From: a phage
Length of the DNA stretch: 64,000 bases
Assembly (NCBI GenBank): GCA_020241125.1
Contig: GCA_020241125.1_4708.1
Direction: 5' to 3' (one strand)
The first letter of the stretch is position 1; every line of letters begins with the position of its first letter. Under the pieces are notes generated by a model. That model ran no database searches. It saw only the letters and a list, made by a program, of their open reading frames with translations, and had not been told where the DNA came from. Below are positions 12,697 through 63,165 of this stretch, piece by piece. The position numbers and the translations under genes were made by a program.

Positions 12697-13947
12697 AGCA
12701 TTGTATCCCTTAAGGATCATCACGCTTAACCCGATGGTATTATCCTGCGGATCGCGTTTAACCTTGGTGATTTCAAGACATTGGTTACTGCTTCGGTCAA
12801 GTGATGGGTTTCGAACAAAACCGCACACAATCCCATCGAACGGTGTATCAGCAATAAGCTCATCGTGCAGCTCACTCATCATCGGATGATAATTACGGAC
12901 ATGTTCCGCAACGAACGCACGTGCTGCTCTCGGTGAATAACCACGATGGAATAACTTGGATTGGATATGTTCTTTATTGGTTAAAGTAAATGGTGCGTAT
13001 GGGAAATGCAGATGATAATAACGATGGTTCGCTGTTATCGAACTGATTACAGTACGCGTGGTGAATGGATGTAATGTACCTAATATGTTTTTACGTGTGA
13101 TACCTTTCTTCTTACCGATGAACTCATCGAAAATCGCCGCATGGTATTGCAGTAGCTTCAATTGCACTTTCGCCATCCAGTTTTCTTTCTTTCTGGCGCT
13201 CAAAGGTGTTGTTGGGTGATAGATACTATTCAACGTACCGATAGCATCGATCGCACCTTCCATTTTGCTATCCGCATAACGACCGGTTGGCGTATTCTCG
13301 ATAACGAACATCATGGCCGCAGGAAAGCTGATATACTGACTGAAGAACTTATCACGATGGATACGGATGAATTCTCGTAGCGTATCAACTTTCTCCGTGT
13401 TCTTCGGTCCGCGTAACGTCGGTCCTTTATACAAGATCTCCATGATGCGATCGAAGTTCTGTATAAAACTATTTACACCGCGACGTATCCCGAATACATC
13501 GAATTGCTGCTCCAGATAGTTCTTGAGTTCGATGGGTCGTTTTACATTTGGACGGTAACTGGCATCAATGAGCCACGTCATCGTTTCAAAGCTTTTGATA
13601 TTCAACTCGCTTGCCAGCACGAGATGGACCAACGGGTTAATGAACGCATCAATTCCTTCAGGAACACGCGCCCAAACCGTCGAACGAATCTCTTGTTCTG
13701 CTGGATAGGTTACAACCGTTTTACAGTTCGGACACACCGTGCCGAGCAGCTCACCACGATTGTAGAAACCACAACCACATTGTGGCGTGATATCCAACGT
13801 ATCGCTGGAGTAAACACGGGTGATAAAACTGTTTAATTTCTTCTTCTCTTCGACGACTTTTGTATCGTAATCATTCAACAAAATCGGCGTGAAAGGAAGT
13901 TCTGCGAGCTGTCTATCGAAACTCACGATATCGAGCATGATGGCCAT
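12697..13947 (-). CDS. non-virion-type RNA polymerase beta-prime-like subunit, exon 1
   Basis: Zn-finger CGCGFYNRGELLGTVCPNC; RKNILG...TRTVISS (beta-prime RQNLLGKR..SGRSVI); GFVRNPSLDRSS (NRAPTLHR); ends GYNA. Track ORF 12643-13947 includes intron read-through. Confidence 0.65.
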
Positions 13948-13989
13948 GGGGTATCTCCTACAAATGAAAAAGAACGTTAGGACGTATAA

Positions 13990-14013
13990 GGGAGGGAGGT
14001 TGCCCTCCCTCCC
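13990..14013 (-). terminator. stem-loop, terminator or processing site
   Basis: 10 bp perfect stem GGGAGGGAGG / CCTCCCTCCC with 4 nt loop, between the 631 aa gene stop and the beta-prime gene RBS. Confidence 0.5.
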
Positions 14014-14039
14014 GTCAGATTACATCGAACGTTCTTCCA

Positions 14040-47688: not shown

Positions 47689-48399
47689 TCACCCCCTCAG
47701 AATCGCTTCTGTTTCGCTGATCGTATCCGCAGGATAAACCAAACTACTATCGATTGCGTTATTCACGTAACCACCCATTAAGTTGGTGATGGTGTTTGTA
47801 CCACTATCGATAATGTTTCGTAATCCGATATCGATGGCTTTTAACGTGCTGCGTTCCTCATCCGAAAGCAAACGCCATGCTCGACGACGATCGTTGGGGT
47901 CACGTGTGGTGATAGAAGCCAGAACAGAATAGATGCTGCTATCCGCATTCAGTTTAACGCCTGCCAATTTCGCTGACGTGTAGAGCAGCTGATATTTTTC
48001 TTTCTCAGTGTACCACCATGGCACTTTACCGAGCGTATAGATCTCGTTATACATCAGCCATGGGAAAGAGTTTCGCATCACGACATCGGTTGACACCAAC
48101 ACCGTGTCACCGGGAAGAAACACAAACTCATAAAACGGCTGGCCATCCATGGTAATTTCACGGATGTCAGACGGGTCGATATGGAGCTGGGTCAATGCGT
48201 GGCTGACACCATACTGACCATCGGGAAGAATAATCGGGCAGCACGCACAAACCCGGTTCTCACTCCCGATGATAGATAAACCCAATCCCTCGTAACGGAC
48301 GGGTGTCAGAATCGAACACCCGCCACGAGTAACAACAGATTTATCTTCTTGTATGTCCCAGTCCGCAAGCACCGCAGCACCGTTGCGGACAAGCGCCAT
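47689..48399 (-). CDS. hypothetical protein
   Basis: 236 aa track ORF; abuts neighbours with 0-1 nt spacing. Confidence 0.5.
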   Translation of the reverse strand: MALVRNGAAVLADWDIQEDKSVVTRGGCSILTPVRYEGLGLSIIGSENRVCACCPIILPDGQYGVSHALTQLHIDPSDIREITMDGQPFYEFVFLPGDTVLVSTDVVMRNSFPWLMYNEIYTLGKVPWWYTEKEKYQLLYTSAKLAGVKLNADSSIYSVLASITTRDPNDRRRAWRLLSDEERSTLKAIDIGLRNIIDSGTNTITNLMGGYVNNAIDSSLVYPADTISETEAILRG

Positions 48400-49923
48400 T
48401 TACACCTCGCTAATCTGGATAACGTAAAGCTGCTGGGCCACGTAATCGGTGGTCAGATGCATCGTTGCGATGGTCGCTGCTTCGAACACCGTGAGTTCAG
48501 GACGTTCACGCATAATCAAATCGATCTCATCGATGAGACGGTTAACGCCTTGAGCGTCTTCGTGATGCATGGTTTTCACGTACAGCGTACGGAAATACTG
48601 CTGGAAGTTAGCTACGTCGGTATCGGTAAGGGTAGCAACTTCACCACGTACGATTTCCATAACCTTCTTACGGGTATCTTCATCGAGGTCCACTGTAATC
48701 AGGTCAGCAAATACGCCCTGCAATGCCAACGCGTATGCACGTAAGCGGTTTGCGGCCTGCTGACTGGCTTTCATGTTGATGTAGTTACGGTAATGCTGCA
48801 TGAAGCCTGCACCGTTAGCCAACAGCTCATCTTTACTGATGAGTTCACGTTCTAACAGGACAGCTGCGGTCAGTGCTTCCGGCGAACCACCTTCTTGCAG
48901 ATAACCCATGTAGACATCTGCGTTAACGAAAATCGTCATCGTTGACGCATCTTCAGCACGTTGAATCTGAGAAGCCGACGGTGCAGAAAGAATCAGCTCA
49001 CCACGCTCCATACGCAGGATACGATCACGACCGACGCGGGCCATCCCGTTGATCGCCGCAGCGCGAGCTTGTTGCATTTTAGCGCGGTAGTTTTCAAGCA
49101 TCATGTCGTTGCCGTCCTGGATATCTTCCAGCAGGTTAACGGCCCACATATAGCAGAGGAATGCAGGAGTTGCCGCAGCGCGGGAACCGTGGAATGCAAC
49201 GTTATCGCTATCCGGATATATAATCAGATAAGCGGTGTTGTTCGAAGAAGGAGCGGAACCACGGAAGAAATAGTTGTAGATGTCTTCCAGCGCCTGATCG
49301 CTCATCCCTTCCGTTGCTTGCTGTACAAAACGATCCAGGTTTTCATTACCGGTATACAGCAACGTACGCAGCTTATCACCGGTGATAAACGCAAGCTTTC
49401 CGGTTGGAGTGAAATCGTTATTAATCGAAATCAAGCCATTGAGGTCATAATCGCTAACTAAGGCCTGGTACTCTTCGGAGTTATAAAACTCAGGATAGTA
49501 ACTCAGACTTACTGTCGGGATCAGTTTCGGTGCCAGGATGATCGAATCGATGCGTTTTTCCAGTTCCGGGTACAGCGCACGGCATTTCGGCAGGATGGTA
49601 TTACGCGCCAACTCTTTGGCATACACCACTTTTTCCACCACGTCTTGAACTGCGGTCTGTAAAACTTCATCGTGGATATAAACCTCGCGTTCGCTGGCAG
49701 GTGCTACAACGCCATCTTCGGTTTCATCAAGTGTTTCAGCAACAACCATACGTTCAGCACTAAGCTGCACCAACGCATCCGCGTCTTCCGGCGGCTGGTT
49801 CCAGTGCATGGTTTCACAAACCGCGGCTAACGGCGTGCCCGGAATGGCTGCGACGATTTGGTTACGTTTGATAAACCCTTCGACAATAGGCTCAACAGCA
49901 TAAACGGTTTTATTGGTGATCAT
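48400..49923 (-). CDS. hypothetical protein, possibly virion-associated
   Basis: 507 aa track ORF. Confidence 0.55.
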   Translation of the reverse strand: MITNKTVYAVEPIVEGFIKRNQIVAAIPGTPLAAVCETMHWNQPPEDADALVQLSAERMVVAETLDETEDGVVAPASEREVYIHDEVLQTAVQDVVEKVVYAKELARNTILPKCRALYPELEKRIDSIILAPKLIPTVSLSYYPEFYNSEEYQALVSDYDLNGLISINNDFTPTGKLAFITGDKLRTLLYTGNENLDRFVQQATEGMSDQALEDIYNYFFRGSAPSSNNTAYLIIYPDSDNVAFHGSRAAATPAFLCYMWAVNLLEDIQDGNDMMLENYRAKMQQARAAAINGMARVGRDRILRMERGELILSAPSASQIQRAEDASTMTIFVNADVYMGYLQEGGSPEALTAAVLLERELISKDELLANGAGFMQHYRNYINMKASQQAANRLRAYALALQGVFADLITVDLDEDTRKKVMEIVRGEVATLTDTDVANFQQYFRTLYVKTMHHEDAQGVNRLIDEIDLIMRERPELTVFEAATIATMHLTTDYVAQQLYVIQISEV

Positions 49924-50156
49924 TACTGCGCTCCCTCCAACGCATTACTACCTACGGGTTCTTTGGTTTCCAGACGGCTGTTTAAGCGCGCAGCAACCGC
50001 ATCTTCCAATCCCAACGGCATAACCTTTTTGTTCACGTCAGGATCGGCGGCATCATTACCAACGGTTTGACGTACGACCTCAGCAACCAACGTTACCGCG
50101 TTCGTCAGCGCAACAAAGCTCGCTGCCCGAGCCGTGTTAAGTTGTTCTTGGTTCAT
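49923..50156 (-). CDS. hypothetical small protein
   Basis: 77 aa track ORF. Confidence 0.4.
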   Translation of the reverse strand: MNQEQLNTARAASFVALTNAVTLVAEVVRQTVGNDAADPDVNKKVMPLGLEDAVAARLNSRLETKEPVGSNALEGAQ

Positions 50157-50230
50157 TCACTTTTCCTTTTAATGTCAGAGCATCGCATTCTTGACGTACG
50201 TCAAGAAGGTACTGCGTTCAGCGAAATAAA

Positions 50231-50256
50231 CGAGCAGGGGCATGAAGCCCCCTGCT
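50231..50256. terminator. bidirectional intrinsic terminator
   Basis: 9 bp stem GAGCAGGGG / CCCCTGCTC with 8 nt loop; T-rich on both flanks; directly after the stop of the beta-like gene. Confidence 0.55.
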
Positions 50257-50257
50257 C

Positions 50258-53200
50258 TTATTTGGCGTCGTTAAAATAAATATCAACAGCTCGTTCCGTT
50301 GCGTAGAGGAGACCAAGATTCACAGTCCCAACCACTTCCGGTGAACCGATGATACGGTTAGCGATACTGGTGCCACTGAAGATAGCATCAAGGGTGTGCC
50401 CGTCTTCGGTTTTGTTCACACCATGACCCACGGAAGAGACAACGGATTTCGCTTGAGCTGCGAAGGTACCTTTATCGCCCATCCCCGCACCAAGGTCGTA
50501 ACGCATGAAAATACGGATTGCGATCTGGTTCTCGCCTAACGGATTACCGTCTATTCTCACGTTACTGTTATTGATACGCCCCGTAGTTGCTTCGTTGAGT
50601 TTCAGTTCCTTAACGCGTTTAGCTCGCGCTTTATCTGCATCACCGACGAGCGCCGCCATGGTTTCACTCATATCCTCAATCTGAGCGCGGTACAGCACAT
50701 CGATCTGTACAACTTCACCATGAACGTCAGCACGTGGGTTATACTGACTCATACGACGTAATGCTTCAACGGCTTCCTGACTCTCATCACTCAGATCGGT
50801 CGCAATCGGTTCTTCCAGTGTTGCAAGGATCGTTCGTGGTTCAACATGATCGCCGATTTTCACGAGACCACGAATGTTGAGATGGGCGTCAACGATGAGC
50901 GTACGGCTCTTAATCGATGGTGTTACGAGACGATCGGCAAGATTGTCGAAGATATACGAACTGTCCTCGTGAGTCTCTGGAATATCCAGAATACCGACAA
51001 GAGACAGAACACCTGCGCGCCAAACAACCTGACCTGGGTTCCACCAATCGCGTTTAAAATAAAGACGATGGAAGACCACCACATCCTGATCCTTAACGCG
51101 ATCCCCGACTTTATAATCGGTAATGAGATCGTGAGGATAATACTTACCTGGTCCTTTCCCGATTATCGTACCGAGCTGGAAAACCTCTTCCCCTAACTCT
51201 GGATCGTCGTATTGTATCGTCAGCGCAGTTTTGGTGACCTTCTTAACAACACCGTCACCTTGGGCGGCAGCTGCAAAGAGTTTACCAACACGATGCGCGA
51301 TGACAGTCTCACCGCCGGTGCGCCACGGTTGTACATCGTAACCCTCAGCGGCAATCATGCGGTTGTGTTGGATCCCGACGAAGACCAGACGTTTTCCATC
51401 ATCACGGTCTACAGCCGGAACAGCTAACGCTGACGTACTCATTACCGATGAGATGCCGTCTGTCTTTTCATCGAATGGTCGTGTTTCACCATACACCGAC
51501 ACGATATTAGCATTAGGTGCAAGGTAAGCAGAGATACCCACATCCCCACTATCTTTCGTACCCTCTGACACAATACCAACATCGGACTTGTCGTATTCAC
51601 GATCACGTGCGCGTCGAAGCGATGTCTTTGAACGACCCCCGATACCGGTCATCGTTGCTTCTTCACCCTGCTTGATATCCAGCATCGGGTTGGTTTCATC
51701 GATCACGATGGACGCGCTGTCGTCGAGAATTTGGTTCCAGACACTTACCGGACTGATTGAGATTTTCTGGCGGTTTCCTTGACTGCTGTTCTCATTCTGA
51801 CGAATAGCGCCAACCAGATCCTTATACACCAATTCAGCGAACTTATCGTACGTTTTAAAACGTTGGTAGTTCACATCGTTCGTGTTAGGTGCCCAATCAT
51901 CCAGAAGCAGTTCAACAGCACGCAGTAACAACATGGCGAAATCGGTAGGTTCTCCCATGTTCTGTAGCAACGTACGGCTTACCGGATCAACGAAAAGACG
52001 CTCCATGAGTTCAAGTTCGCGTAAATGGCGAACCTTAAGTCCGGCACCATCGACAACGTTAAAATAGATATCTCGATTGTCGAAAGCACCGCGAGCGTAA
52101 CCGATGTAGTTACGGTACTCGTTAAATCCGCCCAGCAACAACGTCGTCATGCGATCGTCTTTACTGAAGATCAAACTTTCGTCATCAAAGCTCACCGCGA
52201 ATTCATCGGGTGCTAGACCCATACGAGAACCGCGAGGTACCGTACGATAGTTCGCTTTAAGATGTTCTAATAACGGGGTAAGTCCACCCAGATAACTTAG
52301 AACAACACCAACCGGAATACGTACACCCATGAATTCAAGATCGGCGGCTTCGATCGGCATCTTAGCCGCATTGATACCGAAGAAATCAGGGAACGTCCCT
52401 ACAGGTGTTGGTGTTTGTCCTGACTGACAGATATAGAGCTGATTGCGTTTATCGATTGCTAAGAATTCACCCAGCGTGTTACGCGCAAACGTCAGGAGCC
52501 CTTCGGCTAACTGTTCGTTGAACCGATCTTCCCCGATGAACTCCGGTAGCGTTTTTATATCGAGACGTATATCCCAATCAGCAAATTGGATTTGGGTATA
52601 GTTGCGTGCAAGCACAGCGAAGTAATACGGGACTTTGACGGCCGGATCAAAGACGTTACCACGTTTTAACGTGGTTAAGGGTGAGGACTTATCGTAATAC
52701 ATCGCTGTAAGTTGGCGTGTTAACCAACGACCGGCGTTATTAACGACACGCTCTGAACGTTTAACAAACACCTTACCGTAGGCGGTACTCAACGCAACTT
52801 CGGATGATGATACCTTTCTAATAGGTTTATCAACACGTTGTTTACGCATCCGGTATTTGATGCCGTTAACGACATAAATGCCGTCCTTACGAACCTTCGG
52901 CAACATCACCGGGAACGTGGTTGGGACACCGCCTACAGGGGCCAGTTTAATCGTGATGACTTGATAATCCCCCATCACGTCAACAACATCTTCAACTTTA
53001 TATCCCGTGACAGGGTAACCTGCCTGTTGTACGGCAACAACAGCGGCTGCGATGTCCTTTTGCATCACGTGTTCAACGTAATGTTTATCCCACACCGCAA
53101 GCGTCGATTTACATAGGCTCTTATCGACGATAACATCCGCTTCCGGCATAACCTTTGCTGGCGCTAATTTCGCGGCTTTTGGTTTAACTTCAACATACTC

Positions 53201-54604
53201 AGCAAGTGTTAATCCAGAACCGTCGGGTGCTTCGATTTCATGGATGGCGTCAGCATTACGCATCGCTGCTTTATATTGGACGCCGCTTAACTGACCCGCA
53301 TCAGCCAGATCGCTCGCGCGTACCAACACCGCATCCGATAACGACTGAATATATTCACCGTGCGTTTTTGGTAACGTTGCCGCGTCAAAGACATCAACCT
53401 TTTCTTCTTCGGTATCGTCGGTAACGACTTCGAAGAGATCGTCGGTAATGTCCTGATCTTCATCGGGTTGGAAATCTGGTTGTACTTCTACCCCGGGTAC
53501 TTCACGGACATCTTCGAACGAGCGTTCTACAATGGCGTTCCACGCATCAGCGTCATCGTCTTCATCCGACCCACCAACCAACTCCGCTTCTAACTCATCG
53601 GGATCAAGAACAGTGGCCAGATCCTCACCGTTAGGAAGCACGACGTCGCGATCATCGTACTCTGCATCCGGGCTGTCCGCAAGAATATCTCGCTCTTGAC
53701 GAAGAACCTGTTCCTCTTCTTGTTTCTGTTCTTCTTCATTCGCGCTCTGCGACCATAGACGTGTTACCGCCATCATCCAACGACGCTGGAAGGTTTCGAG
53801 TGTCGTTTTATCGAGTTCTTCCCCTTCCTTTACAAGCCCGGTACGCCATTCTTCCAACAGGCCGAGATTCAGCGTAAAGAAGTACACACCGTCTGTAAAT
53901 ACAACGTTAAGCTTATCCAGCGTGGCTCTGTCTAACGAAGCCATTGTGCTGTTCTCACGATCGGTTCCCAACCAGCGGAAGAAGTCAAAGAACGACAGCT
54001 CCTCCGGCGTGGCGAAATTCATGAGGTTGTTACGGGTCGGTGCCTGTTGCGTGGTACGCATCAACGAAATCTTCGGCAATGTTGACGGTATACGGAACAA
54101 CAAAAAGTGTTGGCGATCGCTTTGCTGCGCGATTTCGTTGGCTTTCGACCAAATTGTTTTACGTACGTTGAACCATTCATCATACCAACGGGTGAGCGTT
54201 GGACGATAGATGTACATGTGGTTAAGATGTGCGTAGTTAGCAACGATCTGAGCGTTGATGTTTTTCTCCACCGTACTTAGATCGGTAACCAAACGAAAAC
54301 GACGATGTGACGCACGATAATCCAATTTCGCTCGTGGGAGCTGGAATCGCTGATCACGTCGAGGTGCACCCTGTTTGGTTGCGAGATCATCAGCAAACGA
54401 AATCCATAGTTGAGCACTTTCTTTACTCAACATGTATTCGTTTTCTGGAGGACCTATCAATGAAGGATCCGTTGCGGTGTAATGATAGACAGCATAACGT
54501 GGCAGCTGCAATAGCTGCACTAAACGTAATCTCGGTGACAATAGCTCTTGGTATCGTCTGACGCCAAACTGTCGGTAGTAATCAAGGTATTTAAGTTTTG
54601 CCAT
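50258..54604 (-). CDS. virion-type RNA polymerase beta-like subunit, N-terminal fragment
   Basis: 1448 aa; DVGIVSEGTKDSGDVGISAYLA resembles beta ICPIETPEGPNIGLI; near C-terminus GMGDKGTFAAQAKSVVS (GDK..RHGNKGV-like) and EDGHTLDAIFSGTSIANRIIG (DGTPVDIV..PSRMNIGQ-like); ends before the GEMEVWALE region. Confidence 0.55.
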   Translation of the reverse strand: MAKLKYLDYYRQFGVRRYQELLSPRLRLVQLLQLPRYAVYHYTATDPSLIGPPENEYMLSKESAQLWISFADDLATKQGAPRRDQRFQLPRAKLDYRASHRRFRLVTDLSTVEKNINAQIVANYAHLNHMYIYRPTLTRWYDEWFNVRKTIWSKANEIAQQSDRQHFLLFRIPSTLPKISLMRTTQQAPTRNNLMNFATPEELSFFDFFRWLGTDRENSTMASLDRATLDKLNVVFTDGVYFFTLNLGLLEEWRTGLVKEGEELDKTTLETFQRRWMMAVTRLWSQSANEEEQKQEEEQVLRQERDILADSPDAEYDDRDVVLPNGEDLATVLDPDELEAELVGGSDEDDDADAWNAIVERSFEDVREVPGVEVQPDFQPDEDQDITDDLFEVVTDDTEEEKVDVFDAATLPKTHGEYIQSLSDAVLVRASDLADAGQLSGVQYKAAMRNADAIHEIEAPDGSGLTLAEYVEVKPKAAKLAPAKVMPEADVIVDKSLCKSTLAVWDKHYVEHVMQKDIAAAVVAVQQAGYPVTGYKVEDVVDVMGDYQVITIKLAPVGGVPTTFPVMLPKVRKDGIYVVNGIKYRMRKQRVDKPIRKVSSSEVALSTAYGKVFVKRSERVVNNAGRWLTRQLTAMYYDKSSPLTTLKRGNVFDPAVKVPYYFAVLARNYTQIQFADWDIRLDIKTLPEFIGEDRFNEQLAEGLLTFARNTLGEFLAIDKRNQLYICQSGQTPTPVGTFPDFFGINAAKMPIEAADLEFMGVRIPVGVVLSYLGGLTPLLEHLKANYRTVPRGSRMGLAPDEFAVSFDDESLIFSKDDRMTTLLLGGFNEYRNYIGYARGAFDNRDIYFNVVDGAGLKVRHLRELELMERLFVDPVSRTLLQNMGEPTDFAMLLLRAVELLLDDWAPNTNDVNYQRFKTYDKFAELVYKDLVGAIRQNENSSQGNRQKISISPVSVWNQILDDSASIVIDETNPMLDIKQGEEATMTGIGGRSKTSLRRARDREYDKSDVGIVSEGTKDSGDVGISAYLAPNANIVSVYGETRPFDEKTDGISSVMSTSALAVPAVDRDDGKRLVFVGIQHNRMIAAEGYDVQPWRTGGETVIAHRVGKLFAAAAQGDGVVKKVTKTALTIQYDDPELGEEVFQLGTIIGKGPGKYYPHDLITDYKVGDRVKDQDVVVFHRLYFKRDWWNPGQVVWRAGVLSLVGILDIPETHEDSSYIFDNLADRLVTPSIKSRTLIVDAHLNIRGLVKIGDHVEPRTILATLEEPIATDLSDESQEAVEALRRMSQYNPRADVHGEVVQIDVLYRAQIEDMSETMAALVGDADKARAKRVKELKLNEATTGRINNSNVRIDGNPLGENQIAIRIFMRYDLGAGMGDKGTFAAQAKSVVSSVGHGVNKTEDGHTLDAIFSGTSIANRIIGSPEVVGTVNLGLLYATERAVDIYFNDAK

Positions 54605-54607
54605 GGG

Positions 54608-56254
54608 TTAGGCTCCACGAGGTCCCGTTAAGTTGCGTAATAGGAACGCAACCGTATCGTAACCAATATCGATGTTGAATTTATTTTTACCACTTACCCA
54701 GAAAGCTCGCTTCTTGTGCGAGTTGGTAATTTCGTCAATAGCTTCCATGGAATAAAGAACGTTAACCGAGACCGTATCACCATCAAAGTCCCCACCAAGT
54801 CCGGCGAGGTATGGCGCAGGGACAATAGTCGTTTCTACGAACGAAGCATTAGGTAACCAGTCGGGGTATTCCCATGCGATAAATCGTTCATCCGTTATTG
54901 GTTCCCAGTTACTATCCAGTTCGGTTTTCGGTTTTGCGGCGACGGTTGTACGTGCGTAACAGGTTAACGGGATAACGGATTGCATACCTGATACCGGATA
55001 ACGTGTTACCATCGCAGCCAGGTTATTCCAGTACTTATATCCGGCAATATAGATAAGCTCGGTGTAAGTAATGGGGTGAACATCCGCGCCAGGTTTATTC
55101 AACATCTCCGGGGGTAATTCACTCATGTCACGGAATAACCGAAACGAATCGTTGTTCACATAGACGAGGCAAAGATATCGTCCATTGACCATGATAGGCT
55201 CGTTACGCACGCCAGGATCGCTTAAGGTGTTCAGTAAACGTTCTATTCCGTCCCATGTTGTAAAGTCATCGATGGTGTCTGGATCAAGCGTGACGCGCTC
55301 ACGTTCCATCGTTTCGGTATCAATAAGTTCAACTTCTGTAACATCACGGACAAATATTTCCTGCAAAATACCTGTACGTAACGCATGTTGCGTTACTGGG
55401 AGAGCGGCTTTACTCATCTGGTATAACCCTAACTGAACCGCGGTACAGGAAGGCTGGTTAGGCGACCCTAATACCTCCGTTGTGGGGTTAATTGCCGAAA
55501 TAACGTTACGGGTTGAGTTCCAAACGCGACGTGAACCAAACTTACCTTGGAAGATCCCTTTCTTACCCTGGAACATATCCAACAGTAAAGCGTAGATATC
55601 GTTGAATGTTCTCTGTAAGCTCCAGCGCTGGCCGTCGTAAACGGGATCGGAATAATCTTTTAATCCATCAGGGACGGTGTTAGAAATTGCAAGGAAACGA
55701 CGATACAACTCCGTGATTTCTTGCTCGCTTTCATACCCACCTTCTTTTACTTCTATTTCACGTAAGCCTGCAGGCAATACCAGTAAGTGACGGGTCATCG
55801 CTTTGAACATGTTCTCTTCGACAACTTTAATTCGTAGCTCTCGTTGAGCTGAACCCGTTGAAACGAACTTGATATCCGCGACGTGTTGTGCAAAGAACCC
55901 GTATCCTGTTTGTCCTGTTAATGCATCAGACGCAACGAAGTCGCGTTGTTCGGGATCCCACCGAGCGTACGCCTTCCCCGACATGATATCGCCATAGAGG
56001 TGTTTTAATCGAATGAGACGGTCGTAAATGACAGGATGCAGGATTTCAACCTTGCATTCAATCACCGCAAATCGACGGTCTCGATCTTCACTACCCGCAC
56101 TACCAAAGATGGTGTAAGAATAGAAACCATCATCGTGGAAATTACCGGTGCTTGGGTCACGAATGCTCATGCTCGTGATCTTGGGGAGAAAACGTAACTG
56201 CTGTTTATCGAGGTGTAAAATACTAATATTAAACGGCTCTCTGACTTTAGCCAT
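54608..56254 (-). CDS. virion-type RNA polymerase beta-prime-like subunit, N-terminal fragment
   Basis: Track ORF 54608-56296; likely start at Met 15 with AAGAGGAG. Motifs LLVLPAGLREI (VLPPDLRP), ITELYRRF (DLNDLYRR), GGDFDGDTVSVNVLYSMEA (NADFDGDQMAVH). Confidence 0.7.
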   Translation of the reverse strand: MAKVREPFNISILHLDKQQLRFLPKITSMSIRDPSTGNFHDDGFYSYTIFGSAGSEDRDRRFAVIECKVEILHPVIYDRLIRLKHLYGDIMSGKAYARWDPEQRDFVASDALTGQTGYGFFAQHVADIKFVSTGSAQRELRIKVVEENMFKAMTRHLLVLPAGLREIEVKEGGYESEQEITELYRRFLAISNTVPDGLKDYSDPVYDGQRWSLQRTFNDIYALLLDMFQGKKGIFQGKFGSRRVWNSTRNVISAINPTTEVLGSPNQPSCTAVQLGLYQMSKAALPVTQHALRTGILQEIFVRDVTEVELIDTETMERERVTLDPDTIDDFTTWDGIERLLNTLSDPGVRNEPIMVNGRYLCLVYVNNDSFRLFRDMSELPPEMLNKPGADVHPITYTELIYIAGYKYWNNLAAMVTRYPVSGMQSVIPLTCYARTTVAAKPKTELDSNWEPITDERFIAWEYPDWLPNASFVETTIVPAPYLAGLGGDFDGDTVSVNVLYSMEAIDEITNSHKKRAFWVSGKNKFNIDIGYDTVAFLLRNLTGPRGA

Positions 56255-56499
56255 GGAGACACTCCTCTTTACCACCACCGGCTGCGGCGGTATCATCTGA
56301 ACACACGAGAGACGTAATGGGTGATGGCGTCACCCATCGCTTCCTTGCTTGAGGCGAGGAAGTTATTAGGTTACGTACCTGCCTGATTTTATCAGGTGGG
56401 CGATGTGTGAAGTTACGCTTCAACATTATCAATGCCGAAGGTAAACTTCGTGCATCACGTTCCAACGTAACATGGGAACGTATCGAACTGGAGGTATAC

Positions 56500-59400
56500 A
56501 TGGTAGATAAAACCCGTGTTGAGGGTGATGATAATTGGGACAACTGGGATGAAGACTTCTCCCTGGATCTCGATTTTAACGAACCCAAAGACGATCGTAA
56601 ACCGATAACACGCTTTGCGATAGGAGCGGTTAAAGGTGCTGCTGAGGATCTTACTTCCTACGAAAGAATGAAGGAGATCGCCAGAAACGCATTGCCTAAG
56701 GGCTACAGCGACGGTATGGATCTTATTGATTCCGCCGTCGGATCCACGAAGGAACTATACAATGAAGCCGTTCGTGACGTTCTTCCTAAGGTCCAAAGCT
56801 CAAAACGGTTAGCCGCACAACTGACCAAGAAATACCGTGCGAGCATGCCCGATTTCTCGAAGAAAATTCTTGAGCAATGGGAGCGAGAAGCCAAGGAAGA
56901 AGACGAACGTAAACAAGCTGAAGAAACCCTTCGTCAACGCATGGCGAGCGCGGGGGACGATGAGATCGCCCGCAAGGTTGCCGAGGCATTAGGCGAATCA
57001 GCAAACCAAAGCGCGGATCAGTTCGCTGAACAGCAAGCGAAAGAGAGTATCCGTGACGATATCGCTGACAAACGGTACGCTGTAACCAACAAACAAATGA
57101 GCGCGATGCAAGAAGGCGTCGCCAAGATGGTTGGTTTCAACAACGAATTCGCTGCACGCTACATGCGTAAAAGCCTGGAACTGAAATATCGTTCCTTAGC
57201 GATTCAACGTGCAAGTTTTGATCAGCATAAAAAGTTAGCCGAAGTCTATATCGGTTTATTACAAAACATCCAGAAGAATACGGCTTTACCTGATGCGGCT
57301 AAAGCAAAAATGTCGGAAGAATTCCGCCGTAGCGCGTACCAACGTTTCTTTGGTAATGCGTTAGATGCGATGAGTTCTTTCGAGAACCGTTTCTTTGCCG
57401 ATGTTAAGAAGAACCTTGCCACCAACGCATTAGGCGCTTTAAAAGGTGTCGTGTCCGGCGCAAACGATGCGTTATACGGTTTAAACGAAGCGCGTGACTC
57501 GATGTCCATGATGGACGGGATGGGGTCAGAAGGCGATATTAAGGAAATGCAAGGAAAGATGTTGGGTCAGTTCATTGGCTCAACTGTCGCGCCGTGGATG
57601 GCTAATAAAGGCAGGATGGCGTTACGCGATTTAGCAAAACGTCACCCCAATGCTAAATTCGCTAGCGCGTTAAAAGCCGTGGATCAAGGTGGTGAGGCTG
57701 CCGCTTACACGACGCGTAATCTCGGTAAACTGCTCCAGGAAGATATTCGTAAAAACGAATTCAATCTTAGCGATCCGTTTTACAAGCAATTGTTACGCGG
57801 TGCAGGGCGTTGGGCGTTCAACATGGACAGCGGACGTAACTTCCGCGTGATGAACGACACCGCTGAAACACTGGCGGAGCAAACATCTTTCGACGGTTTA
57901 ACTTACCGCAGTATCAATGAAGTTATTCCTGGTTTTCTTGCACGCATTCTGAAAAGCAGTGAAGGTATCCGCACCGGAAACAGCGATCCTGACTACGAGG
58001 TCTATGACGGCATCAGCGGACAATTCGTGTCTCAGCGCACGCGTGAACAAAGCGTCAATGACACGCTGTTTAACAAACGTACATTTGGTTATTACGCCAG
58101 CCGTTTCAACGAGGTTATCTCGGTCATCGATCCCGATAAGCAATTATCGGAAAAAGCCAGAAAGGCGCTGGCCAAGCAGTTGGCGCGAGATAGCGACGCG
58201 AACATCGCATTCGACCCGGCTCGTTTTACGGATGAAAGCAACTTCGATCGTAGTATTGACCGCGACGCTATTAAGGAACTTTCCACGTACTTTCGTGACC
58301 GTTACGGTATTCGTGATGATGTCAACGATAAGGGCGAACGTCATCAGGTCATTGGAAACCGCGGGCAATATTACACGGAACGTAACCGAGCCGATCTTCG
58401 TTACGGTCATCTGAAATCTTTACAACCGGATATCCAGCGTAACCTTAACCTGCTGAAACGTACTGGTGACGTCCAATATCTGGAACGGATTGGGATTGTA
58501 ACGAGAAATAGCGACGGAAGCTACTCGGTTAATCACGATCGGTATTTCTCTGAAATCGATCAATACATCGACCGACCGGAGTACGCTGACCGCGGCGATG
58601 TCAATACGCGATTAACCGCTCAGGAAACAAGAGCGCTGGCGCTGGGTTATCGTGACGCAAAACCATCAGCTGGTGACGTCCAAAATGTCGGCCTGCCGAA
58701 CATCGGTCGTAAGGCTGCTGGAACAGTAACCGTTGATGAAAACATCGGCTACGATAAATGGTGGAACGACACAGGTGTTATCACCACATCGCTTGAAGAA
58801 CAGAATCGAGCGTGGCAAGAGCTTTATCTCGAGGCGTTGTCCGAAGCATCCGAACAACGTGTTGAAATGCTTGCGCTGCTGAAAGCCATTTCTGAGAAAG
58901 ACTGGTCTAATAACGTTTCGCTGGATGGTGAAGATGTACCTGAAGGTACAGCACCCATTTCATTTATCGATCGTGCCAAACAAAAACTCGGCGGACGCAA
59001 CCTGTTTAAAGGCGGCCGCAATCTCCTCTGGAAAGGAATTAAAAATACCGCACGTTTAGGTGTTAAAGGCGCACGCTGGGGTGCAGAACGCACGTTGGGT
59101 AGTTTGGTAAATTCTGGCCGACGCATTATCAATTTCAACCGCTTCGTGTTCGGCGCATTATCCAAGGTTGATCAGGTTCCGTTTGACATTTACGTTAAAG
59201 GGGAATCCCAACCACGCATACTGGCTGCCAAACTTCGTCAGGGGTTATACTTCGACGAAGCGACAGGAAAAGCCGTAAAACGGATGAAGGATATCAAAGG
59301 CCCACTCGTTGATGCGGATGGAAACATCGTAATCAGCAACGAGGATATCGAGAAAGGGTTGGTCACTCGCGCTGGTCGTGCCTTTGAGAATTCAGGACTT

Positions 59401-62400
59401 AAAGCATGGGCACGTGAAGGTCTTAATGGAATAACGACGGCATTAAGTCTCCCACGGATGTTAAAACGCGGTGCGGTTGAGATCTACAAACAGCTTGACA
59501 AAACACCCGACGTTTACGTCAAGGGAGAATCAACGCCTCGTCTGTTGTCCATGGTGTTAGCAGCGGGTGGGTATTTCCGTCGCTCGGATGGACAAGTCAT
59601 CAAAAATCTTGAAGACATCGATGGTGATGTTGTTGATGCACAAGGTAACGTCGTACTTACGCTTGCCGACATGCAGAAAGGACTTGTCGATAAATACGGT
59701 AAAGCGATTCGTCGTTTAAAAGAAAAGCTCATCAACTTCGGTGTAAAAGCTTTTACGTTACCGTTAACGTTGCTACGTAAGACAAAGGACATCCTTAAAG
59801 CCCTTCCAGGTAAAACCGTTAACGGTCTACGGCGGATGGGATTAAATTTCCAATCACCCGACGCATTACTGGTGGGAACAACGTCGAGCATGGTAGATCG
59901 CCTCGATGCTATTTACCAGCTTCTTGACCAGCGTATGCCGGGAGGTGATAAGGATTACCGCGATTGGAATGGCGATGGTGTTCGAGAAGGATCGTTGGAA
60001 GACCTGAAACGTAAGCGTGAAGCCAAGGAAAACGGTAAGGATGACATCGGCAAAGATTCCAATAAAGGAGAAGAAAAGGAGAAGAAACGAGGGTTACTCG
60101 GAAGCCTTTTCGATATGCTCGGTGATACCGCAATAGGTAAACGTCTCATGGCGAGTCCGCTTGGAAAAATTCTGGGTGGTCTTGGGGCGGTGTTAAGCGG
60201 CGGTGCGTCGTTAACTGGGTTGTTGGGCAAAGGTCTCATTAGAGGAACCGGCGCGCTGGTCAAGGGAGGACTAAGTGCGGCAGGATGGTTAGGACGTGGT
60301 GCGTTAATGGCGGGTGGGGCCGCGTTGAACGCCGTTGGTGGGTTATCGGGATTAGGTGCATTCCTCATCTCACCTGTTGGGCTTGCTATCGCTGGCGGTG
60401 CGTTGGCTGCTTATGCTGGATGGAAGATCTATCAGCATTTCGCCGAGAAGCCTGACCCGATGCAGAAGCTCCGTCTTATTGCATACGGTGCAAAAGGGGA
60501 TGATAAAGACTTCAATAAGAAGCTGCTTGCGACAGAAACATACCTCACCGACCATGTGGTCATGACCGGGGATACCATCGGATTCGATCCGAAAGCCGAT
60601 TCTGAAAAGATTCTCGAAATCTGGGAATTGTCTCTGGAAGATTCCGACCGAATGAACGAATGGAAACGCTGGTATCTGCATCGTTTTATTCCTGTTTTCG
60701 CTCGTGCGTACAAACTCTGGAAAGAGCATATGCCGGACGAGAAGAAATACATGGAAATGGATAAATATCCGAACGGTGAGAACAAAGTGAAATGGTCGGA
60801 AGCGTTTATCTGGCCTTCCGATAGTCCTGATGGTCCGTATTACGTCGAAGCTAACCCGTTGGGTTCTTCTGGTGCGACGCGTTATATTGCTGGTCAAGAC
60901 GTCAAAACCTTGATGCTGAAACAGCTCGAAGCCATCAAGAAAGAGTACCAGAATCAGATTAAGCAATACACTCATGATGAGGCTATTGCTGATTGGTCAC
61001 GGATGTCTGACACACAACGTAAATCCGTTGCGCCTAACGCATTACGTGGTCAGAAAGCGTCATTACGTTTTAACGATAAACGTTACAACAGCGCTGGTGC
61101 TAAAGGACGACAGAAACTGGATGCAACCGCGGTTATTGAAAGCGTAGACCGTCGTGGTAGAAAATGGGTTGCCGGTGGATACATCGATGAACTCACCAGT
61201 CTCCGTGTTCGTGCGTACGGTATTAAGGTTCCGTTGTTAAGTCAGATAAAAGTGCTGATGGAACTCGAAGACGCTGTAGAACCTGGCGTTGTCGCTGAAG
61301 GTAAAGGTGTTAAATACGGTGGCGATCTTGTCGCGCTCTACAAGAAATTCGCGACGAAGTTCGGAAGAGACGTTAACAGCAAGCATGATCAGGATATCTG
61401 GTTTGCTTGGATGAACAACCGTTTCCTGCCCGTCTTTTTAACCTATTACCAACAAGTTAGCGACATGGGCGGTCAAGGACTTCTGTCCGACGTGGTACAG
61501 AACCTGAAAGACAGCCAACGTTGGGAAATCGGTGAAGAACTTGTCGCAGCGCAATACCGTGATGAGAAAGGTACACTGCAGCCCGTATGGTCGTGGAACA
61601 GTTGTGGTTTCTCCGGTACTGAAGCTAACACCACCAGCAGTTCAACAAAGAGTCAGCTCGATCTGTTAAAAGAATATGCGGATAAAGAGAAGGTTCGTGA
61701 GAAGAACGCGGAAGCATCGCAAGAGGATACCGATAAATTATCGAAGATCCAAGAGCTGATGATGAAGCAGGCTGGGTACGAGAAGAAAGACGGTGTCTGG
61801 CAGAAGAAATCTCGCATTACCGGCGGGATGAGTAACTCCGAAGCGAATTACAACCCCAATGGGAATAAGGTCGGTGCAAGCAGCTTTACTGCTTCAGCTA
61901 CTTCCAGTGCGGGATTGGGGTCAACCGGCGATCTTACCGGATTGCCTAACATGGGCTTACAGAAACCTGCAACGGGGCCAGGTCCCGAAGCTGGACGTCG
62001 TGCGCTTGTTAAATCCGCTGTGAAACGCGGTATTACCGATCCAATGGAAATGGCGATGTTCCTTGCAAACATCGAACATGAATCGGGGAACTACACTCAC
62101 GTACGTGAGGGGAACTATAAGACACCAGAGCGTCTTAAACAGGTCTTCCCTTACAAATTCCGTGACGTGCAGGATGCAGCGCAGACGATTAGCATGGGGC
62201 CGGAAGCGGTGTTCGAACGCGTGTACGGTAATCGTAAAGACTTAGGGAACACGCAGAAAGGAGACGGGGCGAAGTATTTAGGACGTGGCTTCATTCAGGT
62301 TACCGGTAAAGCTAACTACGCTCGTCTGTCCAAGACCTTGAATAAAGATCTTGTCAGCGATCCATCATACCTGGAAACGCCGGAAGGTGCGGCGGAAGGT

Positions 62401-63165
62401 AGTGTCGCGTGGTGGCTCAACCGAGGCAATGTGTTACGCGATCCTGCGAAACGGGGTGATGTGCGCCAAGTTCGTTATCTGGTTAACGGTGGCTATAATG
62501 GATTACGTGACGTTGAACAGCGCTCTGCTTATTGGATTCAGGCGGCTAAGAATGGCACCCTGAAGAAAATGATGGATGAGTTATCGGGATCAACATCAGG
62601 CGATCAAGCTGAAGGACCGACTACCGCCGAGCAGGTGAAGAATGAAGCAGCCCAAGAGGCAAACGGAACGCCAACTGTAAGCAACGATCCGCAAGCCCCA
62701 GCACCTTCAACCACCCCTGAAGCTAAACCGTCTGCGGCTGCCGGTACGGCTCCAGCACCCGGAGAAGCATCACCAGCGCCTGGAAGTTTCGAAACAGCGA
62801 AAGCTGCGGCAGGACAACCGACATCAACGCCAGCACTTAGCGATTTGCCGTCAAACCCTGGCGCAAATCGAGGGATATCGGTTCCGAATACGCCTGCACA
62901 GGTCGCGCAGTCTGCGACACAAACATCGGCCGCGAGTGAGAACTTCTACGGTAGCGCAGGTGAAATTCTCCGACAGCAGCTGACCACGCAGCAGAACATC
63001 GAGAAGAACACCGGTAGAACGAATGAACTTATTTCGGAATTAATCCAAGCCGTTAAGGGTTCTTCTATCGGTAAGGGTTCTGCAAGTCCTTCTCAACAAC
63101 AGGCGATGTCGCTACCTAATCGTCCGCAAGGAATCTCTCCAACACGGACAAGGTACGCGCAGTAG
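56500..63165 (+). CDS. giant virion protein with GH19 lysozyme-like domain
   Basis: Track ORF from 56407; likely ATG at 56500 after GGAGG. About 2220 aa: coiled-coil-like N-terminus, 108-codon tandem duplication, Gly-zipper hydrophobic segment, GH19-like block (NIEHESGN ... YLGRGFIQVTGKANY), P/A/T-rich C-terminus. Confidence 0.7.
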   Translation: MVDKTRVEGDDNWDNWDEDFSLDLDFNEPKDDRKPITRFAIGAVKGAAEDLTSYERMKEIARNALPKGYSDGMDLIDSAVGSTKELYNEAVRDVLPKVQSSKRLAAQLTKKYRASMPDFSKKILEQWEREAKEEDERKQAEETLRQRMASAGDDEIARKVAEALGESANQSADQFAEQQAKESIRDDIADKRYAVTNKQMSAMQEGVAKMVGFNNEFAARYMRKSLELKYRSLAIQRASFDQHKKLAEVYIGLLQNIQKNTALPDAAKAKMSEEFRRSAYQRFFGNALDAMSSFENRFFADVKKNLATNALGALKGVVSGANDALYGLNEARDSMSMMDGMGSEGDIKEMQGKMLGQFIGSTVAPWMANKGRMALRDLAKRHPNAKFASALKAVDQGGEAAAYTTRNLGKLLQEDIRKNEFNLSDPFYKQLLRGAGRWAFNMDSGRNFRVMNDTAETLAEQTSFDGLTYRSINEVIPGFLARILKSSEGIRTGNSDPDYEVYDGISGQFVSQRTREQSVNDTLFNKRTFGYYASRFNEVISVIDPDKQLSEKARKALAKQLARDSDANIAFDPARFTDESNFDRSIDRDAIKELSTYFRDRYGIRDDVNDKGERHQVIGNRGQYYTERNRADLRYGHLKSLQPDIQRNLNLLKRTGDVQYLERIGIVTRNSDGSYSVNHDRYFSEIDQYIDRPEYADRGDVNTRLTAQETRALALGYRDAKPSAGDVQNVGLPNIGRKAAGTVTVDENIGYDKWWNDTGVITTSLEEQNRAWQELYLEALSEASEQRVEMLALLKAISEKDWSNNVSLDGEDVPEGTAPISFIDRAKQKLGGRNLFKGGRNLLWKGIKNTARLGVKGARWGAERTLGSLVNSGRRIINFNRFVFGALSKVDQVPFDIYVKGESQPRILAAKLRQGLYFDEATGKAVKRMKDIKGPLVDADGNIVISNEDIEKGLVTRAGRAFENSGLKAWAREGLNGITTALSLPRMLKRGAVEIYKQLDKTPDVYVKGESTPRLLSMVLAAGGYFRRSDGQVIKNLEDIDGDVVDAQGNVVLTLADMQKGLVDKYGKAIRRLKEKLINFGVKAFTLPLTLLRKTKDILKALPGKTVNGLRRMGLNFQSPDALLVGTTSSMVDRLDAIYQLLDQRMPGGDKDYRDWNGDGVREGSLEDLKRKREAKENGKDDIGKDSNKGEEKEKKRGLLGSLFDMLGDTAIGKRLMASPLGKILGGLGAVLSGGASLTGLLGKGLIRGTGALVKGGLSAAGWLGRGALMAGGAALNAVGGLSGLGAFLISPVGLAIAGGALAAYAGWKIYQHFAEKPDPMQKLRLIAYGAKGDDKDFNKKLLATETYLTDHVVMTGDTIGFDPKADSEKILEIWELSLEDSDRMNEWKRWYLHRFIPVFARAYKLWKEHMPDEKKYMEMDKYPNGENKVKWSEAFIWPSDSPDGPYYVEANPLGSSGATRYIAGQDVKTLMLKQLEAIKKEYQNQIKQYTHDEAIADWSRMSDTQRKSVAPNALRGQKASLRFNDKRYNSAGAKGRQKLDATAVIESVDRRGRKWVAGGYIDELTSLRVRAYGIKVPLLSQIKVLMELEDAVEPGVVAEGKGVKYGGDLVALYKKFATKFGRDVNSKHDQDIWFAWMNNRFLPVFLTYYQQVSDMGGQGLLSDVVQNLKDSQRWEIGEELVAAQYRDEKGTLQPVWSWNSCGFSGTEANTTSSSTKSQLDLLKEYADKEKVREKNAEASQEDTDKLSKIQELMMKQAGYEKKDGVWQKKSRITGGMSNSEANYNPNGNKVGASSFTASATSSAGLGSTGDLTGLPNMGLQKPATGPGPEAGRRALVKSAVKRGITDPMEMAMFLANIEHESGNYTHVREGNYKTPERLKQVFPYKFRDVQDAAQTISMGPEAVFERVYGNRKDLGNTQKGDGAKYLGRGFIQVTGKANYARLSKTLNKDLVSDPSYLETPEGAAEGSVAWWLNRGNVLRDPAKRGDVRQVRYLVNGGYNGLRDVEQRSAYWIQAAKNGTLKKMMDELSGSTSGDQAEGPTTAEQVKNEAAQEANGTPTVSNDPQAPAPSTTPEAKPSAAAGTAPAPGEASPAPGSFETAKAAAGQPTSTPALSDLPSNPGANRGISVPNTPAQVAQSATQTSAASENFYGSAGEILRQQLTTQQNIEKNTGRTNELISELIQAVKGSSIGKGSASPSQQQAMSLPNRPQGISPTRTRYAQ
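59185..59832 (+). repeat. in-frame tandem duplication of a 108-codon module inside the giant protein gene
   Basis: DIYVKGESQPRILAAKLRQGLYFDEATGKAV...DADGNIVISNEDIEKGLV (from 59185) against DVYVKGESTPRLLSMVLAAGGYFRRSDGQVI...DAQGNVVLTLADMQKGLV (from 59509). Confidence 0.6.

Follow-up and report, generated by a model that had tools for sequence, protein, structure and literature searches.

In phiKZ, where rifampicin-resistant, host-independent early transcription is established, the virion RNA polymerase (vRNAP) consists of gp178, gp149, gp180, gp80 and gp176, of which gp180 is a middle-gene product present at ~10 copies per virion. All five vRNAP subunits of the Escherichia coli jumbo phage Goslar were found by virion mass spectrometry at about 7–14 copies, with ~14 for gp207 and ~8 for the gp176-type protein, which is listed as a vRNAP subunit for both phages. 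The remaining beta portion in Goslar is a separate 224-aa protein, gp196, with gp78 as the companion beta-prime C-terminal subunit, and a GFP fusion of gp196 enters the early vesicle together with the injected DNA. We found no report of a vRNAP structure, or of the role of the N-terminal extension of its beta-like subunit, in the PDB or the literature searched. Here we describe the corresponding genes in a 64,000-nt stretch of phage DNA (hereafter the window), which shares 96–97% DNA identity with Goslar. The vRNAP gene system was already known, and the interpretation first given to this locus, a split polymerase of virion type next to a giant virion protein, is supported by our analysis.

A two-gene unit collinear with Goslar and phiKZ

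Both polymerase ORFs lie on the minus strand, with the gene for the beta-prime N-terminal subunit (54608–56254; 548 aa plus stop; PHROG 2986, E = 1e-180) upstream of that for the beta-like large subunit (50258–54604; 1448 aa plus stop; PHROG 3148, E = 0), which starts 4 nt past the beta-prime stop. The 548-aa protein is the orthologue of phiKZ gp180 and of the spliced form of Goslar gp205, from which it differs at 2 of 548 residues, and the 1448-aa protein is the orthologue of Goslar gp207 and phiKZ gp178. The longest version of the upstream ORF (54608–56296) has 562 codons; a Shine-Dalgarno sequence, AAGAGGAG (56262–56269, minus strand), which precedes the ATG at 56254 by 7 nt, favours this codon, and with it the 548-aa product, over the earlier ATG at 56296. 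This 548-aa product is likewise called, intron-less and with the same gene order, on at least seven independent public contigs. Directly 3' of the beta-like stop, an intrinsic-terminator-like stem-loop (50232–50257, minus strand) with a 9-bp stem, seven GC pairs and a T-rich tail closes the unit, and a terminator is annotated at the equivalent Goslar position. We are highly confident that the two genes form a single minus-strand transcription unit for two vRNAP core subunits in a Goslar-like chimallivirus. Scanning 49800–56500 for sigma-70 promoters yielded six sites, fewer than the 8.4 expected from shuffled sequence, a shortage that is expected because a phage polymerase reads these genes.

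As had been noted from the ORFs, the pair is divergent to the gene of a giant protein: a plus-strand ORF (56407–63165) begins beyond a 152-nt intergenic region and encodes a 2252-aa virion protein (PHROG 3201, E = 3e-295). The lysin ascribed to this neighbour is found in a C-terminal GH19/endolysin-like domain, with residues 1867–2091 matching endolysin PHROG 181 (E = 8e-53). The protein is not part of the polymerase; it is the orthologue of Goslar gp204, which carries a tail-protein label and occurs in virions at ~5 copies, and the positional counterpart of phiKZ gp181, which is annotated as ‘tail-associated endolysin’. Its matches are to GH19/chitinase-like endolysin families, unlike phiKZ gp181, which is described as carrying a transglycosylase-type lysin.

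The resemblance to the phiKZ arrangement gp178-gp180-gp181, put forward in the original prediction, extends to a gene-by-gene match over gp175–gp181, in which the order and orientation of the protease, gp176, gp177, gp177.1, gp178, (gp179), gp180 and the divergent gp181 are all reproduced, with products of comparable size. Goslar has the same neighbours (the gp204 lysin protein and gp208–gp212) and the same terminator. A third vRNAP subunit gene inside the window (47689–48399, minus strand) encodes the 236-aa fifth subunit of phiKZ gp176 type. Matching 275 phage records by tblastn, this subunit is 100% identical to Goslar gp210 and 28.6% identical to PHIKZ176 (E = 7e-26), which illustrates how distant the phiKZ proteins are from those of the window; by sequence it had no match in the PDB even at E = 10. 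The missing C-terminal parts of beta and beta-prime had been expected outside the window, and collinearity with Goslar places them there, the gp196 counterpart ~5.7 kb past the window end and the gp78 counterpart far away.

Polymerase homology and catalytic residues

The upstream protein had been read as a beta-prime N-terminal fragment with recognizable motifs through DFDGD and no zinc finger, and we confirmed each of these points. In a profile search against the PDB, the best solved relative was AR9 beta-prime N (E = 7.6e-15), and matches were also obtained to plastid and cyanobacterial beta-prime/gamma (E = 5e-8) and to residues 211–356 of E. coli beta-prime (E = 7e-6). The AF2 model of the 548-aa protein (mean pLDDT 80) gave 583 Foldseek matches in the PDB at E ≤ 0.001, with AR9 beta-prime N again the best (5e-15), and the best 50 of the 583 are all largest-subunit chains of multisubunit RNAPs. 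The sequence GGDFDGD occupies residues 487–493, the DFDGD codons for the catalytic magnesium-binding aspartates (residues 489–493) lying at 54776–54790 on the minus strand. In an alignment of 30 homologues, down to 38% identity, D489, D491, G492 and D493 are invariant, and the two residues preceding DFDGD are GG or GA in the family as opposed to NA in cellular enzymes. We found no CxxC or zinc-finger pattern in the 548-aa protein and no invariant cysteine in the family alignment. Since the aligned N-terminal segment of AR9 beta-prime N has no cysteine pattern either, the N-terminal zinc ribbon marks cellular enzymes and not the phage split type.

[quoted passage not shown] The two share 13–15% identity with global TM-scores of 0.3–0.4, which are probably low because the isolated model arranges its domains differently. 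Cyanobacterial gamma and plastid RpoC1, which are free-standing beta-prime N-terminal halves, rank directly after AR9 in both the profile and the fold searches. They differ from the phage protein in their length (~620–690 residues compared with 548) and in their partnership with alpha and omega, and they are described as keeping the zinc finger and as being split later in beta-prime.

For the 1448-aa protein, the profile match to Thermus beta (E = 3.2e-15) consists of four colinear segments spanning beta 118–870, aligned in the order 118–136, 395–462, 532–656 and 822–870, of which the first two are individually weak. The last three of these align with a beta-homologous body (residues 500–1448; 50258–53107, minus strand) that contains a fork/Rif-region homologue, an ADRDD motif, the hybrid-binding region and the beta double-psi barrel. 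Residues 1–500 make up about one third of the protein. They include a conserved alpha/beta domain of ~310 residues (53675–54604, minus strand), with no counterpart in cellular beta and no structural relative, and an acidic, D/E-rich linker (residues 314–412; 53369–53665, minus strand) that is predicted to be disordered, with pLDDT <50 over most of the stretch. At the other end, the C-terminal portion reads GDKGTFAAQAKS...SIANRIIGSPEVV...*, stopping ~30 residues past ANR, the counterpart of cellular PSRMN, and the C-terminal clamp and switch regions of a complete beta are absent. The beta-like motifs and the end right after the PSRMNIGQ-like region were correctly described, and nearly all of the 150 beta-like homologues listed share this end point, which speaks against a chance resemblance. 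The label ‘beta N-fragment’ fits less well: the homology to beta stands, but the protein comprises most of beta together with an N-terminal extension of ~500 aa.

It takes profile searches or fold comparison to reveal the RNAP homology of the two proteins. Pfam-A identified no RpoB or RpoC domain in either of them, which shows that this model library is insensitive to such sequences and is not evidence against homology, and a single-sequence phmmer search of the 1448-aa protein against the PDB returned only a chance match (E = 0.3). When the full 1448-aa protein was used in a word-indexed homologue search, just three proteins were found, the list of candidates having probably been flooded by the acidic linker; the same search with residues 1–290 gave zero matches, missing even the identical protein. 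The family was taken from an exhaustive HMMER search, in which more than 2200 cluster representatives at 50% identity match the beta-like protein.

The original prediction had pointed out AAQAKS where cellular beta has its RHGNKG active-site loop, as either a real divergence or an alignment error. The loop in question (residues 1376–1387; 50444–50479, minus strand) is the counterpart of cellular GDKMAGRHGNKG. Among 30 homologues, down to 27–28% identity, K1378 and K1386 are invariant at the 8-residue spacing of cellular enzymes, R1417 is also invariant, and G1376 and D1377 are at least 90% conserved. The cellular loop residues R, H, G and N, by comparison, are conserved nowhere in the family, for which the consensus is GDKGVFxNQLKT. 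The window has FAAQAKS against VFxNQLKT in this consensus, and the loop of phiKZ gp178, a protein of 1451 aa with the same GDKG..NQ.KT pattern and the same end point, reads GDKGVVANQMKT. We take the two lysines of GDKxxxxxxxK to be E. coli K1065 and K1073, and the phiKZ nvRNAP carries an equivalent pair, K386 and K394. The divergence is thus real and family-wide, the suspected alignment error can be set aside, and both catalytic lysines are kept.

Unoccupied intron sites in the polymerase genes

The new detail in the window is that both genes are free of the group I introns found in their counterparts in Goslar, phiKZ and a near-identical relative, L012. Goslar carries a 2.0-kb group I intron with an endonuclease gene (gp206) within the DFDGD codons and phiKZ has an intron with gp179 at D|FDGD (Rfam, 92 bits), whereas the homing site in the window, between 54788 and 54787 on the minus strand, is unoccupied. 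A second unoccupied site is found in the beta-like gene, immediately 3' of 51398 on the minus strand, next to the codons for D1068-D1069 (51398–51403), which are at least 90% conserved. In L012 (SRR7721869; 95–97% DNA identity), this position after DD is occupied by an ORF-less group I intron (Rfam, 54 bits). The homologous site in PhiPA3 holds the gp210 homing-endonuclease intron, right after the conserved DD of the gp211/gp209 vRNAP beta gene, a position equated there with E. coli RpoB D675 and phiKZ gp178 D1072 (Birkholz et al., Science 2024). The L012 intron therefore shares the site of the PhiPA3 gp210 intron but does not have its endonuclease gene, and the window gene is uninterrupted. 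Searching the whole window with the Rfam group I model at the gathering threshold gave no match, both vRNAP reading frames are continuous, and we conclude that the window carries empty-site vRNAP alleles.

Interruption at DFDGD is also reflected in the homologues, as 11 of the 120 listed clusters stop there, ten of them just past the first Asp and one of them two residues short of that point. The Goslar GenBank record likewise annotates only exon 1 of the beta-prime N gene (502 aa). In GenBank, the Goslar orthologues are named ‘hypothetical protein’ or, generically, ‘RNA polymerase beta subunit’, with beta-prime N cut at the intron.

Compared with Goslar, the empty DFDGD site in the window is recoded at five consecutive codons through synonymous third positions. 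This recoding could confer resistance to an intron endonuclease of the Goslar/phiKZ type (gp206/gp179 family), a proposal that we liken to the interference system of PhiPA3 gp210 against phiKZ gp178. It is possible, if somewhat doubtful, that the intron-free vRNAP alleles are one side of an ongoing phage-versus-phage conflict; separately, and with the same reserve, the ~310-residue domain of the beta-like protein may be a capsid-targeting or head-assembly-coupling module.

Assignment to the virion polymerase

The evidence given above on gene structure, homology, synteny and conservation of catalytic residues comes from the window pair itself. Packaging into virions, activity, injection and timing are carried over from published work on Goslar and phiKZ, and on this analogy the pair very probably encodes two core subunits of a virion-packaged multisubunit RNAP. 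The virion type claimed in the original prediction is likewise suggested by Goslar gp205, gp207 and gp210, which are 96–100% identical to the window proteins and were found in purified virions. That prediction had counted absence from virions together with late rather than early expression as evidence against itself. The first half of this reasoning stands, but late expression is to be expected, because phiKZ vRNAP genes are middle genes whose products are destined for progeny particles.

Both phage polymerases are built of split beta and beta-prime pieces, and the closest solved structure by both sequence and fold, AR9 beta-prime N, is an nvRNAP subunit, so that the pair might instead belong to the nvRNAP working inside the phage nucleus. 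We consider this very improbable, for three reasons. The Goslar counterparts of the pair carry the vRNAP label and were detected in virions. The pair is also syntenic with gp178 and gp180 of phiKZ, two packaged proteins that co-purify as vRNAP. Finally, the window has a separate nvRNAP beta-prime N gene (about 12347–13947) with a zinc finger of CxC...CxxC type and a DFDGD exon of its own. The intron of that nvRNAP gene (12347–12696) was undetected by the Rfam group I model even at E = 10; a dead remnant or a further protein split was ruled out by 26 compensatory base-pair changes relative to Goslar.

We give equally little credence to the view that the proteins are mainly structural head components with a retained polymerase-like fold and an essential role in capsid assembly. 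The annotation of phiKZ gp178 and gp180 as ‘structural head protein’ and the large non-polymerase N-terminal domain of the beta-like protein are consistent with it, but the invariance of the catalytic aspartates and of the lysine pair in the 30 sampled homologues speaks for a role as an enzyme that has been kept, the vRNAP is credited with early transcription in phiKZ and Goslar, and a capsid role could be additional and not an alternative. Least credible of all is that the 2.0-kb deletion-like gap relative to Goslar marks degenerate ORFs of an assembly artefact or a defective Goslar variant, since the gap is a precise intron absence with an uninterrupted reading frame, two amino acid changes against 80 nucleotide changes relative to Goslar indicate strong purifying selection, and the independent public contigs carry the identical intron-less protein.

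As core subunits of a packaged enzyme, the 548-aa protein would supply the clamp/lid region and the double-psi barrel bearing the DFDGD magnesium site, and the 1448-aa protein the fork region, the hybrid-binding region and a second barrel with the two invariant lysines. By analogy with Goslar and phiKZ, their partners would be a small beta C-terminal subunit, a beta-prime C-terminal subunit and the gp176-type fifth subunit, with no alpha or omega subunits in the complex. About 5–20 complexes would be made in mid/late infection by the other polymerase of the phage and packed into the capsid. They would leave it together with the DNA, enter the early-infection vesicle and there transcribe the early genes independently of the host polymerase.

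For the window, the main value of these results is correct annotation. The intron-free alleles are natural uninterrupted coding sequences useful for expression and structural work, and, set beside their interrupted relatives, they form a natural pair of empty and occupied sites with which intron homing and interference among jumbo phages of E. coli can be studied. A virion polymerase lets nucleus-forming jumbo phages begin transcription in a sealed vesicle without the host enzyme, and the vRNAP genes are thereby central to the phage life cycle and to resistance to host defences.

Split subunits of the polymerase

At the DNA level the polymerase region shares 96% identity with that of Escherichia phage vB_EcoM_Goslar, a jumbo phage of the Chimalliviridae (phiKZ group) that forms a nucleus; collinearity with Goslar extends over the entire window, at 96-97.6% identity, two large gaps excepted. 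For the protein encoded at 54608-56254 (minus strand, 548 aa), PHROG, profile, fold and motif evidence agree with its earlier identification as a beta-prime N-terminal fragment. It matches the PHROG family 'RNA polymerase beta subunit' from end to end (E 1e-180). In a single-sequence search of the PDB it matches the AR9 phage polymerase's beta-prime N subunit (E 4e-4); with a profile of 30 homologues this match improves to 7.6e-15 and is followed by split beta-prime chains from plastids and cyanobacteria (5e-8), and the profile also matches E. coli beta-prime residues 211-356 (7e-6). When the AlphaFold model (mean pLDDT 80) was compared with the PDB by Foldseek, 583 matches were obtained at E<=0.001, the best 50 of which are all chains of multisubunit RNA polymerase complexes, headed by AR9 (5e-15). 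GGDFDGD is present, with D489, D491, G492 and D493 invariant in the family, and the protein ends about 55 residues past DFDGD, which makes it a phage-type N-terminal fragment. The zinc finger is lacking, as first described: there is no cysteine pattern, and no cysteine is conserved in the family.

The beta-like character of the second protein (50258-54604, minus strand, 1448 aa) is also borne out, and is visible with profiles only. Pfam-A and single-sequence PDB searches returned no match, PHROG gave a full-length match (E 0), and an exhaustive HMMER search with residues 500-1448 collected 2200 cluster representatives. Among 150 listed homologues, almost all have 1300-1550 residues and nearly all share the end point of the query. 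A profile of 30 homologues matches Thermus beta at 3.2e-15 through four segments in the correct order. In Thermus numbering these are 118-136, then 395-462 with the fork and the rifampicin-region motif NP...GGRS, 532-656 with the hybrid-binding region (...DD..R) and, for the GDK barrel loop, 822-870. The label 'beta N-fragment' is topologically correct, the protein ending about 30 residues past ANR, which replaces PSRMN, yet most of the conserved beta core is in that fragment. In Goslar a protein of its own, gp196 (224 aa), supplies the remainder of beta, and collinearity with that genome places the beta-C and beta-prime-C genes outside the window, as the original prediction had stated.

AAQAKS, found where cellular beta has its active-site loop, had been left as either a real divergence or an alignment error; the alignment was correct and the divergence is real. 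The loop reads GDKGTFAAQAKS in the window versus GDKMAGRHGNKG in cellular beta, GDKGVVANQMKT in phiKZ gp178 and GDKGVFxNQLKT in the beta-like family consensus. Across the family, K1378 and K1386 do not vary and keep the cellular eight-residue spacing, the same lysine pair to which the structure paper on the phiKZ non-virion RNA polymerase (nvRNAP) points, while R, H, G and N of the cellular loop are kept nowhere in the beta-like family.

The beta-prime N ORF extends over 54608-56296 (minus strand, 562 codons), and the start proposed at 56254 proves the better one: AAGAGGAG precedes that ATG, no similar site lies before the upstream ATG, and the 548-aa product is also called on several independent public contigs. 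The beta-like ORF (50258-54604, minus strand, 1448 codons) starts 4 nt past the beta-prime N stop with GGAG ahead of its start, and its stop is followed by a GC-rich stem-loop of 9 bp and a T-rich tail (50257-50232). Given this 4-nt spacing and the stem-loop, the pair looks like one unit, probably transcribed from the 152 nt between the divergent genes as far as the putative terminator.

Virion assignment and gene neighborhood

Assignment to the virion-packaged polymerase (vRNAP) is transferred to this phage from the literature on near-identical proteins, which is direct. The phiKZ vRNAP is described as comprising gp178, gp149, gp180 and gp80, with gp176 added more recently; its gp180, a middle-gene product, has DFDGD, is present at ~10 copies per virion and is injected. 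In a Goslar virion study, the supplementary table gives ~14 copies of gp207 (beta-like), 13 of gp196, 8 of gp210 (fifth subunit) and 7 of gp205 (beta-prime N), and GFP-tagged gp196 is packaged and seen with injected DNA in the early-infection vesicle. A third vRNAP gene, that for the fifth subunit, is inside the window (47689-48399); its product has 100% identity to Goslar gp210 and is a homologue of phiKZ gp176, with no detectable polymerase homology of its own. Late rather than early expression, which formed part of the refutation proposed earlier, would not count against a virion enzyme, since such an enzyme is produced for the progeny virions. The description as a 'second' polymerase is apt because the window contains another beta-prime N gene as well, that of the nvRNAP, which encodes a zinc finger.

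The phiKZ gp178-gp180-gp181 layout named in the original prediction is matched gene for gene, the phiKZ order being head protease, gp176, gp177, gp177.1, gp178, gp179 and gp180, then the divergent 'tail-associated endolysin' gp181. In the window, the last position is taken by a giant ORF (56407-63165, plus strand, 2252 codons) divergent from the polymerase pair, which is lysin-bearing as predicted (endolysin family match at residues 1867-2091, E 8e-53) and whose Goslar orthologue is present at ~5 copies in virions.

Immediately downstream of the polymerase unit come homologues of two Goslar genes, gp209 (507 aa; window 48400-49923, minus strand, the phiKZ gp177 position) and gp208 (77 aa; window ~49923-50156, minus strand, the gp177.1 position), which the Goslar virion study places at ~280 and ~380 copies, among the most abundant unmodelled virion proteins. 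By collinearity, window 1-243 (minus strand) falls within the homologue of Goslar gp171 (annotation 'RNA polymerase beta subunit', presumably part of the nvRNAP), of which the window has the N-terminal end only.

Introns in the polymerase genes

A 2.0-kb gap between the beta-prime N genes of the window and Goslar corresponds to a group I intron in Goslar (Rfam 67.7 bits; 13531-15574 of the Goslar DNA L001) that carries the endonuclease gene gp206, similar to phiKZ ORF179. Its junctions are clean (...GGC GGT GAT / intron ...AAGG / TTC GAC GGT GAT), with U ahead of the 5' splice site and G as the final intron base, and therefore split the motif as D/FDGD. The same arrangement is found in phiKZ, in which annotated gp180 ends with ...LGAD and a stop, after which come gp179, a group I core (92 bits) and the exon FDGDTVSF.... 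Homologue clusters truncated at this point make up 11 of the 120 listed (10 right after the first Asp, one two residues earlier).

Unlike Goslar and phiKZ, the window has no intron at this site (54776-54790), and the identical protein is likewise encoded by an uninterrupted allele on at least seven public contigs. Compared with spliced Goslar, 80 of 1647 bases differ, changing 2 residues only. Five of these differences, all synonymous, are at third positions of five consecutive codons at the empty site (-7, -4, -1, +2 and +5; GGT GGG GAC TTT GAT in the window versus GGC GGT GAT/TTC GAC in Goslar), and apart from these the downstream exon differs at just one of its 180 nt. This pattern would fit either co-conversion at intron gain in the Goslar lineage or a recoded, endonuclease-resistant site.

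The beta-like gene of the window is uninterrupted as well. In a relative (Logan contig L012, SRR7721869; 95-97% DNA identity to the window), this gene has an ORF-less group I intron of ~463 nt (Rfam 54 bits; contig 13856-14222) directly after ...ADRDD, equivalent to window 51397/51398. The PhiPA3 gp210 intron is at the same beta-like site, and its endonuclease nicks the intron-less phiKZ gp178 gene, giving PhiPA3 a competitive advantage.

The nvRNAP beta-prime N gene of the window (12347-13947 region, minus strand) has a 350-nt ORF-less intron at 12347-12696 (minus strand), placed between the NA and DFDGD codons (...AAT GCT / ... GTG / GAC TTT GAC); the mechanical ORF at 12643-13947 (434 aa) runs on into it. 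Group I-like motifs are present (GAAUUGCUG, plus AAUCAGCAGCC...GGUUCAACGA), and the proposed fold includes a P3/P7 pseudoknot. All 85 of 85 proposed pairs form in both the window and Goslar sequences, with 26 compensatory changes versus 1-2 in slid controls; the Rfam group I model did not detect this intron even at E 10. The Goslar nvRNAP gene (13848-15661 of the Goslar DNA L003) appears to contain two tandem introns around a 13-nt mini-exon (C GAC GGT GAC GCT), because of which the Goslar gp247 and gp185 CDSs would be mis-annotated. Intron 1, inserted at ...GAC TT/C, has an Rfam core of 46.9 bits and the HNH gene gp186. Intron 2 is homologous to the intron of the window, with 72% identity against 97% for the genome, and lies 18 nt further downstream (DA/MN versus NA/DF). 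GCU precedes this intron at both its window and its Goslar site, which suggests that it shifted over a short distance to a position offering the same short guide pairing.

Annotation and significance

In both reference records (NC_048170.1 gp205 and AF399011.1 PHIKZ180) the beta-prime N annotation halts at the intron, giving 502 aa in Goslar and 490 aa in phiKZ that end in ...GD or ...GAD plus read-through, and omits the exon for FDGD and the C-terminal ~55 residues.

The observation and interpretation in the original prediction are both correct. The feature belongs to a system already described, here in a phage closely related to a well-studied one. The useful additions are the exact gene models, the resolved loop question, the fifth-subunit gene located in the window, the N-terminal domain of the beta-like protein, and the pattern of intron presence and absence. 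The intron-free gene of the window gives the true full-length beta-prime N protein.
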